Program-made: the position numbers and the translations under genes | From: Candidatus Woesearchaeota archaeon | GTDB taxonomy: Archaea; Nanobdellota; Nanobdellia; Woesearchaeales; UBA119 | DNA: 64,000 nucleotides | Assembly (NCBI GenBank): GCA_030156615.1 | Contig: JASGME010000001.1 | Location: 13,881 to 77,880, forward strand | Direction of reading: 5' to 3' | The notes under the pieces: model-generated | Told to the model about the DNA's origin: nothing | What the model saw: only the letters and a program-made list of their open reading frames with translations | Database searches by the model: none | Shown here: positions 26,987 through 57,421 of the stretch, one piece after another | How the letters are laid out: every line of letters begins with the position of its first letter | Position numbering within the stretch: the stretch's first letter is position 1

Positions 26987-28453
<1,467 letters not shown>

Positions 28454-28509
28454 TTTTTTATTTTCATCTTTCGGGACAGCCCCCTTATATTCCTTTTTTG
28501 GGGATGTAA

Positions 28510-28583
28510 GGGCCTGTAGCTCAACTTGGGAGAGCGTCGCCTTTGCAAGGCGGAGGCTTCGGGTTCAAATCCCGACGGGTCCA
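28510..28583 (+). tRNA. tRNA-Ala (anticodon TGC) in the 16S-23S spacer; no encoded CCA
   Basis: Manual fold gives acceptor gggcctg/cgggtcc with the G3:U70 Ala identity pair, anticodon loop ttTGCaa, and T-loop ttcaaat. Confidence 0.85.
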
Positions 28584-28689
28584 TTTTAGTCGTAGTTCGA
28601 TACCGCAAGATATCGGATGGTAGGCCGATCCTCTTTTAGAGGTGCTTGATTCATTTTATCAAGTTATTTTGATGAGGCCAATCATAGGA

Positions 28690-31615
28690 GACTGGAAAAC
28701 AGGATAGATAAGATTCTACTAAGCCATCAGATGGATGACTTGGCTTGAGAAGCCGATGAAGGACGTGGCAAGCTGCGAAAAGTCTCGGGGAGTTGCATGC
28801 AGACCTTGATCCGAGAATTTCCTAATGGGACTTCCTGTTCCTTCGGGAACACTCCTTTTGGAGGGGGAACGCGGAGAATTGAAACATCTTAGTATCCGCA
28901 GGAAAAGAAATCAATTGAGATGTCGTAATTAGGGGCGACCGAAAGCGACGAAAGGCAAACTGAATCTCTTATAGCAATATAAGAGAGATGTGGTGTTTCG
29001 GCTATCTTGATTTCTTGTATGTCTAACTTAAGTCTTCTGGAAAGAAGCACCATAGAGGGTGATAGTCCCGTAAGAGAAAGCATGCAAGAATGTGATAGTA
29101 CCGAGAGTAGCGTCTATTGGATATTAGGCGTGAATATGGGGGACATTAACCTCTAACCTTAAATACTTCTCAAGTCCGATAGCGAAATAGTACCGTGAGG
29201 GAAAGTTGAAAAGAACCCTTGGCAGGGTGTGAAAAGAGCCTGAAATCTGATGGTTATACCGGGATAGGGCACTATGTGTGTTCTATCGTACGTTTTGAAT
29301 AACGGGCCAGGGAGTATATCTATGTGGCGAGAATAACCTTCTATGAAGGGGATTCGTAGGGAAACCGAAAAGTTCGCAGCAATGCGAGGAACTGAGTTTT
29401 AAAATGCTCGGAGTCACGTGGATTAGACCCGAAACCGCACGATCTACGCCTGAGTAAGGTGAAGCGAGGGTAAAACCTCGTGGAGGCCTGCAGAGGTGCT
29501 ATGGACAAGTGCTCTTCTAACTTGGGTGTAGGAGTGAAATGCCAATCGAGTGCGGATATAGCTGGTTCCAGCCGAAATTGGCCTAAGTCAAGCCTCGAGG
29601 GAGATGTCTTATGTGGTAGAGATACTGATAGGAGATTTAGGGGGAGAAATCCCTCGGTTTTCTGTCAAACTCCGAATGCATAAGAGTCGTAGATCTCGGG
29701 AGACGGGGGCAGGGGGTAAACTCCTGTTCCAAGAGGGGAACAACCCAGACTCTAGTTAAGGTCCCAAAATGTTGACTAAGTGCGAAAGGCCAAAAGGTGT
29801 CTATCTCCTAAGACAGAGAGGAGGTTGGCTTAGAAGCAGCCATCCTTTAAAAAGTGCGTAACAGCTTACTCTTCGAGGGGGTAGGCCCTGAAGATCGACG
29901 GGGCTAAGTCGACTACCGATACTAGGGATATGCCAAAAGCATATGATAGGCTGGCGTTCTATAAGGGCGGAATCATCTCTTCAAGGAGATGTGGACCTTA
30001 TAGAATTGAAAATCCTGGCAGTAGTAGGATCTAAGCAGGGTGAGAGTCCTTGCCACCGAAAGGGCTAGGGTTCCTTGACAATGCTGATCAGTCAAGGGTT
30101 AGTTGGTCCTAACCGGCGACCTAACAGGTTAGTCCGGGAAAGGGAAACAGGTTAATATTCCTGTACAATCTGGATATCCGGCAACGAAAGATCTTTTTTC
30201 GACGGTTCAGGGTAGACATAGACAAGCTGTCGCTTGTTTCAAGGGGTATAAATCTTTGGAGTATCGTAATGATGAGAAAAAGATGAAAACTCCGATGAGC
30301 ATCCGCGAGGGTGTTATGTTGATCCCAGGACTCAGTGAAAAGAGAAAAGATATAGATTCCAGATTGCCATACCGAGATCCGACACAGGTGCCCCTGGGTG
30401 AGTAGCCCAAGGTGTGCGGGTGATAATCCAGTCGAGGGAAGTCGGCAAATTAGTCCCGTACCTTCGGAATAAGGGATCCCTGAGATTGTTCTCTTAAGAG
30501 TGCAACCTCAGGGCTCAGTGACAAGGGGGATCCGACTGTTTAACAAAAACATAGCCAACTGCTAGTTCGAAAGGATTTGTATAGTTGGTGAAGTCTGCCC
30601 AGTGCCAGTACTTTAAACTTCGGTTCAACGGAGCGAAGAGCTGGTAAACGGCGGGAGTAACTATAACTCTCTTAAGGTAGCGTAATACCTTGCCATTTAA
30701 ATAATGGCTTGCATGAATGGCGTAACGAGATCCCCACTGTCCCCGACTGGAAACCCCTGAACTTCCTGTACTGGTGTGGAGGCCAGTGTCTTCCAGTGGG
30801 ACGTGAAGACCCCGTGAAACTTTACTGTAGTCTGTGGTTGAGGAGCGAGTTTTGATGTGCAGGCTAGGTGGGAGTTGTTGAGGCTTGGCCGTCAGGTCAA
30901 GTGTAGACGAAAGATGAGAAACCACCCTTCAAGACTCACTTCTCTAACTAACATTTTGTTAGGACACCCATTGATGGACAGTTTGACTGGGGCGGTACTC
31001 CGCTGAAAAGATATCAGTGGAGCCCAAAGGTTGGCTCATTCGGATTGGAAACCCGAAGTTGAGTGCAAAGGCAAAAGCCAGCCTGACTGAATCCTAGACA
31101 AGGAAGGATTCAGAAACGAAAGTTTGGCTTAGCGAACCTCTATCTCTCCTTAATGGGGGGTAGAGATGACCGAAAAGTTACTCCGGGGATAACAGAGTTG
31201 TCTCTCCCGAAAGTCCATATTGACGGAGAGGCTTGCTACATCGCTGTCGGCTCTTCCTATCCTGGCCGTGCAGAAGCGGCCAAGGGTGGGGGTGCTCACC
31301 CATTAAAAGGGATCGTTAGCTGGGTTCAATACGCTGTGAGGCAGTATGTTTAATATCTACTGGAAGTGTTTATGGTCTGATGGGAAGAACCCTCTAGTAC
31401 GAGAGGAACGAGGGATCGAGGCCTCTGGTCTATCGGTTGTCTGACAAGGCAGGCCGAGCAGCTACGCCTTAGGGGATAAGTGCTGAAAGCATCTAAGCAC
31501 GAAGCCCTCCTAGAAAAGAGACCAAGGACACGGGAAGAAGACCCGTTTGATGGAACTGGCGTGTAAGCATCAAGCCTTCGGGCGAGGTGTTCAGCGCGCA
31601 GTCCCCAACAGTCCG
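28690..31615 (+). rRNA. rrl: 23S ribosomal RNA (archaeal), boundaries approximate
   Basis: The 5' region has gccgatgaaggacgtggcaagctgcgaaa. The sarcin-ricin loop context is agtacgagaggaac. The 3' region has ctgaaagcatctaagc. No 5S follows. Confidence 0.85.
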
Positions 31616-31763
31616 ATTTATCTTATCACTTTTTTCAGTCTCCTATGGTTTTAGCCTCTTTTTTTCTTTCACTTTTTTCTTTTCTTTTTCTTTTTTATCA
31701 AATTCCATTTAGAATTCCATTTATGGAAAGACTTAAATAAAATGATTTTAATTCTTTAAATCT

Positions 31764-54167: not shown

Positions 54168-55409
54168 ATGAGCATGACACTTGAAGATGTCATTGCCAAG
54201 ACGAAAAGACATTTTAAAAGCGGGATTGTGGCAGCCGTTGCTGGCATAACTTTGCTTAGTGGTTGCACTTCTCCTCCTCCTTCTCCGCCCCCGACTAATG
54301 AAAAACCTGTGATAAACATTGAAACTTTAGATATTCATCTTGATTTTGATGGCGTTAATGTTATTGATAACAATAACGATGATATTATTGACTCTTGGGA
54401 TGAGGTTGATGATATTGGTCCAGTTTATGTATCTGCTTATAAGGTTCCTGTTACTTCTTATGATGAATATACAGTTAGCACAGAATTCCCTGAATTAGAT
54501 TCTATTTATCTTGAGGTTGACAGGAACGCGAGAGAATGTATTATGGAAGAACAAGAGTTCAGCGATAGTTCTGACATTAATTTCTCTTTGACTTATCCAG
54601 ACAAAACTTTAGAAGATTTCATAATTGAAATAGAAGTCAGAGATAAGGATGAAAGTCATCATAATTACTCTTTCTTAGTTGATCCTCAGATGGAAGAAGT
54701 TGATAAATATGTAAAGCTTGGTCAGAATAATAAAATATTGAATATCTTGTTAGGCTATGGTGTTGCCAATCATGAGAATAGTGGTGAACAACCTGTACAA
54801 CGCGATGAGGTTGCAATAGAATATTCAACAGGCGATTGGCCTGAGGGCAGCCCTGAAGAAATCTGGTGGATAAATAAAGAAGGATACAACTTAACGCCTG
54901 AAGCCTCTCAAGCGATAAGAGATTCTTGTGAATACTTTTTCCCTGGAGTCCCTATTATAATAAAAGATAGTTATGAAACACCTATTCCAGATAAAATTTT
55001 TTTTATAGAAAAAACAGATGGCCAAGCTGGCGCTGTTGTGACTTTCTGGAGTACTGATAATTATGAATATGGAACAAATTATGTTAGAAATGGAGGAGTA
55101 TACTTGCGTTACGATTCAACAGGAGCCGTTAATCAAGAGATAGGTACAGTTGCTGAAGCCGCAGCAGAACCGCAAGGAACTGGGTTTAATTCAATTTTTT
55201 CAGGGAATGAAGAAATAACACCCTGTGATGAAGCTGTTTTTGCTATAAAACACAGCCAAGAACCAGAAGTAGGATGGGTTGTGATATATGAACCAGATCC
55301 AGGGGGTTACCCTTGGCCAGAAACAAAAGTCTCTTTTGCAGGTAACGCAACAACATCAGCAAATAATAATAGGACTGTTTATGTCCTTCCTAAGAGAGAG
55401 GAGTTCTAA
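54168..55409 (+). CDS. Acidic secreted lipoprotein, function unknown
   Basis: The signal peptide ends in the lipobox LLSGC, followed by a Pro/Ser linker SPPPSPPPT. The mature part is D/E-rich. Confidence 0.5.
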   Translation: MSMTLEDVIAKTKRHFKSGIVAAVAGITLLSGCTSPPPSPPPTNEKPVINIETLDIHLDFDGVNVIDNNNDDIIDSWDEVDDIGPVYVSAYKVPVTSYDEYTVSTEFPELDSIYLEVDRNARECIMEEQEFSDSSDINFSLTYPDKTLEDFIIEIEVRDKDESHHNYSFLVDPQMEEVDKYVKLGQNNKILNILLGYGVANHENSGEQPVQRDEVAIEYSTGDWPEGSPEEIWWINKEGYNLTPEASQAIRDSCEYFFPGVPIIIKDSYETPIPDKIFFIEKTDGQAGAVVTFWSTDNYEYGTNYVRNGGVYLRYDSTGAVNQEIGTVAEAAAEPQGTGFNSIFSGNEEITPCDEAVFAIKHSQEPEVGWVVIYEPDPGGYPWPETKVSFAGNATTSANNNRTVYVLPKREEF

Positions 55410-57421
55410 GGTTTGTTTATTGGATGATCTTTCTTTGGCGGAGTTACAGTCCTTGAATCGGACGGAGTCTTAAAGCAATAAGAAGTATTATCTTCTGTTG
55501 TGATGATTTTTTCGCAAGTATATTCTTTAGCTAATATTTCTCCTCCAGAACAGTAAAATTCTATCAGTTTTCCATCAGAAACCTGATCACAGCCCATTTC
55601 AACATTAACAAATTGGAAGTCATCATCTATTTGTCCGTTTTCTTCGTTCCCGTCATTATTATTCTCTGCGTACATTGTATAGACACAGCCCCATTCCTTT
55701 GGCTTGTCCCCATAATCTGTTTCTATACATTCTCCTAGGCTAGTAGTTGGACTCTTTGGTCCTTTACCAACAACATTACGAGGAGCATCAGCAGATTTTA
55801 TTACTACTATCTTTTCATTTTTTCTGGTATCAAAACTACAATATTCTCCAACTAAATTACAATAAACAACTGAAGCAGTGTTTCCTGTGCCACATATGTT
55901 TGGATCACTATCTAAATAATTGTAACAGATGTCTTCTCCGTATTTGAGTCGGCAACTATCTACCACTGGATCATAATATTCATCTTGACGACAATATCTT
56001 TCGTTCCTATCTTCTCCTCCTATTGGATTCTCAACATAACTTGATTGAGATGCAAAAGATGTGGAATTCATGCAATAAAGAGTTTCTCCACTTACTTCAT
56101 TGTAACATGTTGAATTCCCTGCAATGCACGGTTGATTATAACAGGATACTGTGCAATTATTGTTAACACATACTTCATAATCTCCAAAAATGGCTCCTCC
56201 TCCACATTGTGCATCAGTATTACAATCACGCCAAGTCCCAGGATAGCCACACCAATCAGGATCACTATCATGATCTACGCTAGGTCCTTGACTATTTGAA
56301 GGATAGCATACATTATTATACACACAATCCGTAGAAGAAAGGCAACATGCTTTATCATCTAAATCTGGATCTTGGTATGAATAATCAAGAGTGTTGTCTC
56401 CTACCCCGCCACAAACATATTCGCTCCCATCATCACCACAGCATGTTGTGGCTGAAACCTCTCCACCTATATTCCATTTACAAGAAGAACAACATGAGCA
56501 ATATGTTGATGAATCGTCTCCATCTAGAGTTTCTGAATAACAATTGCCATTTGAACAATAATGATTTATATATTCTCCGCCATAACAACCATCTGTGCCA
56601 CAGGATTCCACATTTGAACTTGTGTAAGTGCAGGATCCACCAGAACAAGTATAAGTTCTGTATTCTTTAGTAGAAGCATCCTTACAATAGTCTCCAGAGT
56701 AAAGAGCACAATTATCACTCCAACTTAAAGAGTACGTACAAGATGCACTTCCCACGGCTCCTGTACAAGAATAATCTCTTGATTCTCTGATGTCTCCATT
56801 ACAATAGATTCCATCATAATCATCACAATCTTTACTGCTGGTTCTTTTATAATCACATCCTCCTGGAATGCAGTAATAGTTTCGTTCTTCTAATTTATTG
56901 CCAGAACCACAAGCATATCCATCGTAATCATTGCAATCTTCACGGCTTGTCTCGACGAAGTGGCAGGCGTAGTTTCTACACTCCTCGTATCCAGTAACCG
57001 AAACCTCACCAGCGCAATAATTTACTTCAGAATCGCAATGTGAACTAGAAGTACATTCTACACATTGTCCATCATGGCAATATGGTTGAGAAGAGTAACA
57101 GCCTCCACAATCAAGGGTCCCCCCACAACCATCACTTACAGTACCACACTCAACACCAAGCTCACTACAAGTAGAAGGAGTACATTCGTTGCATTCTCCA
57201 CCAGAACAGCCGTATGTACAGGTAGTTGTTGTTTCTTCATCCACAACACAATATCCATCTAAGCAGTAATAGGTTTGGTGCACTGCGACATTACCATCGC
57301 AATATGAATTAGGTGGACAATCCGAATCAAAATTGCACGCTTCAACAACTTCAACAGAAAGAACAAAGCTAAGAAGAAATCCAAGCAAAACAACAGCCAT
57401 CAAAAGGGTTCGAAACTTCAC
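55406..57421 (-). CDS. Large Cys-rich modular secreted/surface protein (671 aa, signal peptide, about 90 Cys)
   Basis: An N-terminal signal peptide is present. There are repeated modules of the form C-x-DYDG-x-x-C-x(7-9)-R-x-Y-x-C. Examples are CNDYDGYACGSGNKLEERNYYC, CDDYDGIYCNGDIRESRDYSC and CALYSGDYCKDASTKEYRTYTC. The protein is rich in G/S/Y/D and has no transmembrane segment apart from the signal. Confidence 0.55.
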   Translation of the reverse strand: MKFRTLLMAVVLLGFLLSFVLSVEVVEACNFDSDCPPNSYCDGNVAVHQTYYCLDGYCVVDEETTTTCTYGCSGGECNECTPSTCSELGVECGTVSDGCGGTLDCGGCYSSQPYCHDGQCVECTSSSHCDSEVNYCAGEVSVTGYEECRNYACHFVETSREDCNDYDGYACGSGNKLEERNYYCIPGGCDYKRTSSKDCDDYDGIYCNGDIRESRDYSCTGAVGSASCTYSLSWSDNCALYSGDYCKDASTKEYRTYTCSGGSCTYTSSNVESCGTDGCYGGEYINHYCSNGNCYSETLDGDDSSTYCSCCSSCKWNIGGEVSATTCCGDDGSEYVCGGVGDNTLDYSYQDPDLDDKACCLSSTDCVYNNVCYPSNSQGPSVDHDSDPDWCGYPGTWRDCNTDAQCGGGAIFGDYEVCVNNNCTVSCYNQPCIAGNSTCYNEVSGETLYCMNSTSFASQSSYVENPIGGEDRNERYCRQDEYYDPVVDSCRLKYGEDICYNYLDSDPNICGTGNTASVVYCNLVGEYCSFDTRKNEKIVVIKSADAPRNVVGKGPKSPTTSLGECIETDYGDKPKEWGCVYTMYAENNNDGNEENGQIDDDFQFVNVEMGCDQVSDGKLIEFYCSGGEILAKEYTCEKIITTEDNTSYCFKTPSDSRTVTPPKKDHPINKP

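Follow-up and report, generated by a model that had tools for sequence, protein, structure and literature searches.

The described systems that come closest to the gene pair studied here are the cohesin-dockerin arrangement of the cellulosome and the CBM14/peritrophin-A modules. The first is an analogy of working: an anchored protein that bears Ig-like spacers stands next to secreted ones, which have a single conserved terminal region in common and carry interchangeable functional heads. The second comprises small beta-hairpin or three-stranded units (for instance in Blo t 12, 2mfk; Avr4, 6bn0; and chitotriosidase, 6so0) that are disulfide-stapled, expose aromatic residues and hold six cysteines in ~65 residues. 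Features of both may have counterparts at a locus in a 64,000-nucleotide stretch of contig JASGME010000001.1 (hereafter the window, meaning the whole stretch that was analysed), where gene A encodes a secreted, cysteine-rich modular protein and gene B, its partner, an acidic lipobox protein. The window belongs to a metagenome-assembled genome (MAG) of Candidatus Woesearchaeota, in agreement with the archaeal source that a first reading of the bare DNA letters (the sequence-only reading) had proposed. DPANN archaea, the Woesearchaeota among them, are believed to rely on contact with other cells, and to our knowledge the surface proteins that mediate such contact are almost entirely unknown. We propose that genes A and B constitute a two-gene cassette for the cell surface that is conserved within one small lineage of Woesearchaeota, with B as an anchored stalk protein and A as a secreted protein whose head can be swapped, a reading that we regard as evenly balanced between right and wrong.

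Strict pairing of genes A and B

The two open reading frames (ORFs) converge and their ends overlap by 4 nt at the stop codons (55406-55409), just as the sequence-only reading had described. A convergent partner was present in all eight cassettes with readable downstream DNA (the window, L001, L002, L003, L004, L051, L052 and L053/L054), the identical 4-nt overlap recurs in five of these, and the pairing persists at 38-45 % identity (L003). The cassettes occupy at least four genomic contexts, flanked by SepF/PIN, by AsnRS and an S8 protease, by an ATP-binding cassette (ABC) transporter or by a radical S-adenosylmethionine (SAM) gene, and two of them (L001 and L002) lie in one genome. Both families are narrow. 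The partner family returned five matches in 5.8 billion clusters, all of them Woesearchaeota MAGs or metagenome sequences, among which P0059 (L001), P0060 (L051) and P0062 (L003) could be tied directly to cassette contigs; the C-terminal region of A, residues 406-671, is conserved in nine protein clusters only (P0002-P0010). A literature search returned nothing relevant on cysteine-rich or disulfide proteins of Woesearchaeota or DPANN archaea, or on the CCGDD module described below, and the strictly paired cassette is undescribed in the literature that could be searched.

Another of the five partner matches, P0061 (NCBI PWQ87_732, partial; 718+ aa, with extra Ig-like repeats), is a second paralogue encoded in the MAG of the window, which given this protein probably holds at least two cassettes. 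At L003:3931-4059, directly after the partner gene, a second cysteine-rich gene begins that is 60 % identical to residues ~302-346 of protein A, suggesting that cassettes may also stand in tandem.

Partner B carries a lipobox, L30-S31-G32-C33, behind a basic n-region and a hydrophobic core, followed by TSPPPSPPPT, and its mature form has an isoelectric point (pI) of 4.07; the earlier description of an acidic lipobox lipoprotein with a Pro/Ser stalk was therefore apt. One study (PMC12462473) defines the lipobox as [L/V/I]-3 [A/S/T/V/I]-2 [G/A/S]-1 C+1 where a signal peptide ends, predicts that proteins with this motif are common among DPANN archaea, and reports AliA in this group "with some gaps". 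The partner's motif conforms to this definition, and lipidation itself is predicted; the lipobox is kept in P0059, P0060 and the L002 partner. Its homologues begin at the third codon of the ORF (MTLEDV..., M3), so that the true start is probably 54174 and not 54168. In an alignment of six homologues, the most distant at 42 % identity, the C-terminal domain of ~360 residues has 103 invariant columns; it matched no family or PDB entry. Between this domain and the stalk, paralogues hold an Ig-like repeat region (Big_9, Big_13) of ~170-370 residues that is lacking in the window partner, giving family lengths of 413, 592, 718+ and 783 aa.

Protein A contains 69 cysteines (10.3 %), fewer than the roughly 90 estimated at first sight, and its commonest residues are S (69), C (69), G (67), D (62) and Y (54), which bears out the reported abundance of Gly, Ser, Tyr and Asp. 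The mature protein has a pI of 4.06. A hydropathy scan found the N-terminus, MKFRTLLMAVVLLGFLLSFVLSVEVVEA, to be the sole hydrophobic segment; it is the signal peptide that had been noted, has the tripartite form of a Sec secretion signal with no further transmembrane segment behind it, and is conserved in P0002 and P0003. This signal peptide was judged by hydropathy and inspection. Searches of Pfam, NCBIfam, PHROGs and PADLOC returned no significant enzymatic or family match for gene A or its partner, in line with the lack of an enzymatic motif in A already remarked on. Sequence and profile searches of the PDB were likewise null for the whole of protein A, for the partner, for the C-terminal alignment and for the repeat alignment. 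A viral origin was rejected on the lack of any PHROGs family or BFVD structure match, and a defence origin on the lack of a PADLOC match. Coordinates are collected in Table 1.

Table 1. Features of genes A and B in the window, with two metagenome loci that carry the CCGDD module. Residue numbers refer to the respective protein; KD, Kyte-Doolittle hydropathy; HMM, hidden Markov model.
Feature	Position	Strand	Basis
Gene A, 671-aa secreted Cys-rich modular protein	55406..57421	-	GTG start, TAG stop 55406-55408; ORF call and composition
A: signal peptide, Sec-type, residues 1-28	57338..57421	-	n-region KFR, hydrophobic core, c-region VVEA; putative cleavage site; 19-residue windows with KD >1.6 start only at residues 1-13
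A: divergent hairpin unit u0, residues 35-67	57221..57319	-	C-x5-C-x11-C-x4-C; z ~4 against u2 and u4; hhalign P = 0.0011
A: CGGC motif CTPSTCSELGVECGTVSDGCGGTLDCGGC, residues 80-108	57098..57184	-	57-78 % identity to Myxococcota/Polyangia repeats
A: degenerate unit u1, residues 129-162	56936..57037	-	Repeat Cys spacing; z 0.2-2.8, no HMM match; membership statistically unsupported
A: three secure 35-residue hairpin repeats, residues 163-273	56603..56935	-	HMM scores, shuffle z, phmmer relatives, AlphaFold2
A: Cys-rich linker, residues 274-307	56501..56602	-	Fourth "module" of the sequence-only reading; unsupported as repeat copy
A: CCGDD module, residues 308-405	56207..56500	-	W-N-I-G-G-E...CCGDD...ACC..TDCVYNN.CY...W.DC; invariant alignment columns
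A: family-specific C-terminal region, residues 406-671	55409..56206	-	19 Cys; end predicted beta-rich; conserved 42-80 % in P0002-P0010
Gene B, partner, 413-aa acidic lipobox protein	54168..55409	+	ORF call; TAA stop 55407-55409
B: signal peptide, residues 1-33, ending in lipobox L-S-G-C33	54168..54266	+	Sequence
B: Pro/Ser-rich stalk TSPPPSPPPTNEKP, residues 34-47	54267..54308	+	Sequence, homologues
B: conserved C-terminal domain, residues 53-413	54324..55406	+	Invariant SHHNYS, KILNI.LG.GV.N, TV.E.AAEP
Example CCGDD loci	L024:2007-9752; L015:4119-11453		Metagenome contigs

Modules of protein A

Protein A is put together like a mosaic from four or more distinct parts, and the part that defines the family is its conserved C-terminal half, not its repeats. 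Across the aligned family representatives residues ~305-657 are 47-80 % identical, and residues 406-671 found no PDB or Pfam match. The N-terminal half varies from member to member: the positional orthologue P0003 is without the three repeat units of the window protein and has other hairpin variants, the paralogues P0004-P0009 carry an unrelated "IRIWQG" N-domain, and some paralogues have CGGC repeats added C-terminally. When compared with P0002, encoded on an independent Joint Genome Institute (JGI) contig (L004 ~1400-1830), residues ~257-395 (window ~56237-56653) were 96-100 % identical in protein and 97-100 % in DNA, with both flanks of this ~400-nt tract at 58-88 % DNA identity. Such a tract points either to recent gene conversion between diverged alleles or to a chimeric metagenome contig.

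Three copies of a 35-residue hairpin repeat are secure in the window protein (residues 163-198, 199-237 and 238-273), with pairwise z of 5.9-6.5 against composition-preserving shuffles, none of which reached the observed score in 300 trials. We built a repeat HMM of 35 positions by iteration over the collected sequences (consensus CNDYDGWYCSGDTREYRDYYCSGGSCTYTVSSSED); it recognises 100 unit matches in 26 proteins and scores the three window units at 42.5, 48.4 and 38.4 bits (domain E 4e-12 to 3e-15). Cysteines at HMM positions 1, 9, 21 and 26 are found in all three of these and in 43 of the 64 full-length units across the family, a spacing of C-x7-C-x11-C-x4-C in which the loop between the last two cysteines varies in length. 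The sequence-only reading had quoted four such modules; the fourth, CGTDGCYGGEYINHYC (residues 274-307), is unsupported as a repeat (z <= 1.6, hhalign E = 0.05), and only the other three stand. The shuffle and profile tests likewise gave no support to units at 129-162 and 400-431, and the unit at 35-67 is marginal, with a partial HMM match over residues 39-59 (E = 0.0015) beside the values in Table 1. A count of six or seven copies was rejected because units u1, u5 and u6 fail these tests.

Neither Pfam nor NCBIfam has a model that covers the repeat, even in the other proteins that carry its best-conserved copies, consistent with the earlier remark that the module matches no named domain. Membership of the EGF-like or TNFR families was rejected, as no such Pfam family matched at E <= 1 and no structural match was found; the sequence-only reading had named a match to an EGF-, TNFR- or anaphylatoxin-like family as what would overturn its view of the module, and none was seen.

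Structure prediction, which had also been suggested, yielded a confident fold for the three-unit segment. With an alignment of three-unit windows from homologues, AlphaFold2 modelled residues 163-273 at a mean predicted local distance difference test (pLDDT) of 94.9 and a predicted TM-score (pTM) of 0.73. Each modelled unit consists of a helical turn of 3-4 residues (C-x-x-Y), a short strand (G-W/Y-Y-C) and a long beta-hairpin (R-E-Y-R-D-Y-Y-C, a G-G turn, then C-x-Y-T-V-T), making three beta-strands per unit in total. No solved structure resembles this model in a Foldseek search of the PDB (best E 1.0, TM 0.22), and the best hit in the BFVD viral library had an E of 0.6. Cysteines 2 and 3 are lost together in four units, which hints at a 1-4/2-3 disulfide pairing. 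When the full-length protein was modelled instead, only residues ~30-70 were well predicted, with pLDDT of 71-79 for the 31-70 blocks and three strands.

The repeat is not specific to the window organism. An exhaustive phmmer search with residues 109-310 against 1.84 billion representatives found 16 other proteins (E 4.7e-16 to 2.3e-4); a homologue search with a single-unit alignment as query gave 10 word candidates and no matches. The repeat is sparsely distributed: its carriers belong to DPANN archaea, with a small number of bacterial MAGs besides. In contigs from one genome per species, a scan queried with two close sequences placed it in eight MAGs: two Aenigmatarchaeota, one Nanoarchaeota, two unclassified archaea, one Dehalococcoidia, one Desulfobacteria and one Phycisphaerales. 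The carriers are multidomain proteins whose recognised domains are of extracellular type (Peptidase_S8, Laminin_G_3, Hint, Dockerin_1, Big_2, CARDB/DUF11, NosD beta-helix, PKD and InlB-type B-repeats), and translated carrier ORFs with a complete N-terminus mostly start with a hydrophobic, signal-like segment (L006, L009, L012, L013); one also has a trypsin-like TAGHC motif. The earlier claim that A is exported and surface-associated is thus supported by its signal peptide, by the lipobox of its partner and by the exclusively extracellular domain company that the repeat keeps elsewhere.

The hairpin-repeat protein at L008:1777-4296, on a contig labelled Phycisphaerales bacterium UBA9295, has an N-terminal part that looks like a NosD-type beta-helix by eye only and ends in a hydrophobic segment followed by RRREENN, resembling a sortase-type C-terminal anchor. 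The contig is short, and its bin assignment may deserve a check.

Two further modules of protein A occur elsewhere. The CGGC motif spans 29 residues, is widespread and resembles multi-copy repeats in secreted proteins of Myxococcota/Polyangia and others (P0011-P0014 among them), where it is present in up to a dozen or more copies against a single one in the window protein; no Pfam or NCBIfam model covers it. One CGGC-repeat cluster of 62 sequences, P0014, bears the name "tryptophan synthase alpha chain", apparently a misannotation that has spread through the records.

The CCGDD module stands in more than one copy in the large proteins P0023 (encoded in a Woesearchaeota MAG) and P0025; these are the two carriers that we scanned, and in them it matched no Pfam or NCBIfam model. 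It is also the part of A to which nearly all of 37 metagenome loci (L014-L050) correspond, and at three of these the match reaches further into the C-terminal part. Copy number ranges from 1 to 8 in giant cysteine-rich ORFs of 596-2582 aa, one with 194 cysteines. At metagenome loci with the CCGDD module alone the partner gene is missing.

Readings of the pair and its genomic setting

In the cassette reading, protein A would be exported as an acidic, cysteine-rich protein without a membrane anchor of its own, and protein B would be lipid-anchored in the membrane through its lipobox, continuing outward as the Pro/Ser stalk, the optional Ig-like region and the C-terminal domain. B would tether A to the cell surface by way of the conserved C-terminal regions of both proteins. 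The exchangeable head of A would then face outward and bind a ligand outside the cell, a glycan or another cell's surface being the likeliest. The hairpin repeat, a rigid unit of three strands that is studded with Tyr and Trp and has four conserved cysteines, may act as a binding or spacer module, and it seems to play a like role in unrelated secreted proteases and beta-helix proteins. The facts fit a functional tie between the conserved C-terminal half of A and its lipid-anchored partner. Adhesion to a host, or association with an S-layer, which the sequence-only reading had raised for A, would be conjecture.

Several points weigh against such a cassette. Physical contact between A and B is a step that we infer. 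Convergent genes are not co-transcribed, so that co-inheritance alone could explain their linkage. The full-length AlphaFold2 model of A, built on a 10-sequence alignment, was poor (mean pLDDT 35.4), which leaves the C-terminal domains without a fold assignment, and the lipobox of P0062 is non-canonical (G-A-S-C). The disulfide pairing in the model is presumed, and Woesearchaeota are mostly anaerobes, which makes extracellular disulfides less self-evident.

An unlikely alternative, although one to be taken seriously, is that A and B are co-inherited and act independently, A as a free secreted binding or structural protein and B as a surface lipoprotein unrelated to it, such as an enzyme or a protein that binds solutes or polymers, acting through SHHNYS and TV.E.AAEP. 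Convergent orientation implies separate promoters, and B has no conserved cysteine that could form a disulfide link to A. The conserved His, Glu and Asp motifs of B, which include KILNI.LG.GV.N besides the two just named, could mark a catalytic or metal site. Independence sits poorly, however, with a pairing found in eight of eight cassettes in at least four contexts and held at 38-45 % identity, with the co-occurrence of two extremely narrow families, and with the duplication of the cassette as a unit in one genome (L001, L002).

The cassette reading can also be extended into a bolder one that joins all these elements in a DPANN-type host-attachment system of a dock-and-display kind. A lipid-anchored stalk of adjustable length would capture adhesins by C-terminal docking, their heads would be exchanged or recombined between paralogues and strains, following host surfaces, and the repeat would represent a new aromatic-rich glycan-binding fold common to archaea and bacteria. 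Taken as a whole, we consider this extension distinctly doubtful.

The variable modular region and the recombination tract would fit an arms race, in which A would be a secreted toxin or antimicrobial, cysteine-rich like defensins or nodule peptides, and B its membrane-anchored immunity protein. Pfam also gave a sub-threshold likeness to late nodulins over the signal peptide and the first cysteine-rich stretch (E = 0.04; 14.7 bits against a cut-off of 30.4). The immunity gene of a polymorphic toxin system follows its toxin gene in the same orientation, whereas the partner of A is convergent and is exported. Polymorphic toxins also combine a conserved N-terminal with a variable C-terminal part, and protein A shows the opposite arrangement. 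Pfam, NCBIfam and PADLOC gave no match to a toxin or defence model, and the other repeat carriers are proteases and binding proteins. We therefore rejected membership of the polymorphic toxin/immunity class and regard a toxin-immunity role in general as very unlikely.

We give still less credence to the idea that the cysteines bind metals or redox cofactors and that A serves an anaerobe by sequestering metals or handling electrons outside the cell. A cysteine content of 10.3 % and the assumed anaerobic lifestyle of the lineage would suit this role. Protein A nevertheless has no haem-binding CxxCH, its repeat units are without the paired CxxC knuckles typical of metal sites, and AlphaFold2 folds the units confidently without ligands.

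Finally, that gene A is an artefact, either a spurious ORF or the mis-assembled repeat DNA that the sequence-only reading had warned of, is effectively refuted: nothing but the unusual composition speaks for it, the product is 100 % identical to a protein already on record (NCBI PWQ87_64, "hypothetical protein", Candidatus Woesearchaeota archaeon), its nine homologue clusters come from independent assemblies and show synteny, one of these (P0002) keeps the same three repeat units, and the DNA repeats within the gene are merely short and diverged (at most 38 nt at 71 %).

The genes around the pair are of housekeeping type. SepF, a TrmB-like helix-turn-helix (HTH) regulator and GrpE-DnaK-DnaJ lie on one side, and a PIN_9 protein, Rpo7, Spt4, S24e and a HAD hydrolase on the other, in a gene order that matches that of locus L001 in a second MAG. 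Elsewhere the window holds a complete archaeal rRNA operon (26987-31628), made up of 16S (26987-28453), a spacer tRNA (28510-28583) and 23S (28706-31628), with a GC content of 44-48 % against ~34 % in the surrounding DNA; no 5S rRNA match was reported in the window.

Comparison with known systems

The general kind to which protein A belongs, the modular extracellular cysteine-rich protein, is familiar. EGF-like, TNFR and anaphylatoxin-like repeats are likewise short, extracellular and rich in cysteine, and differ in the number and spacing of these residues. The CBM14 modules differ in holding six cysteines in ~65 residues against four in 35 in the window repeat, which has no Pfam CBM_14 match; the disulfide stapling and exposed aromatic residues of CBM14 may nevertheless have a counterpart here. 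The Myxococcota/Polyangia proteins share the CGGC motif and are otherwise unrelated to protein A. The giant CCGDD proteins (P0023, P0025, L015, L024 and L027) have in common with it the module at residues 308-405, but they lack its C-terminal region and the lipoprotein partner, and P0023 and P0025 carry PKD or fn3 domains.

The cohesin-dockerin logic remains the nearest parallel to the proposed working of the pair, and the hairpin repeat itself co-occurs with Dockerin_1 in P0070. The anchor at the window locus differs in being a lipobox, the interaction between the two proteins is a proposed one, and no cohesin or dockerin Pfam domain was found in A, in the partner or in the partner's homologues. 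What is new relative to these systems is the paired cassette together with three cysteine-rich modules, all without a model in current domain databases, of which one has a confident predicted fold and no solved counterpart. With profile models of the modules, many large surface proteins now listed as "hypothetical" in metagenomes would be better annotated. With a strictly paired anchor and secreted protein, a conserved "tail" and exchangeable "heads", the locus offers a concrete candidate for the contact proteins of DPANN archaea.

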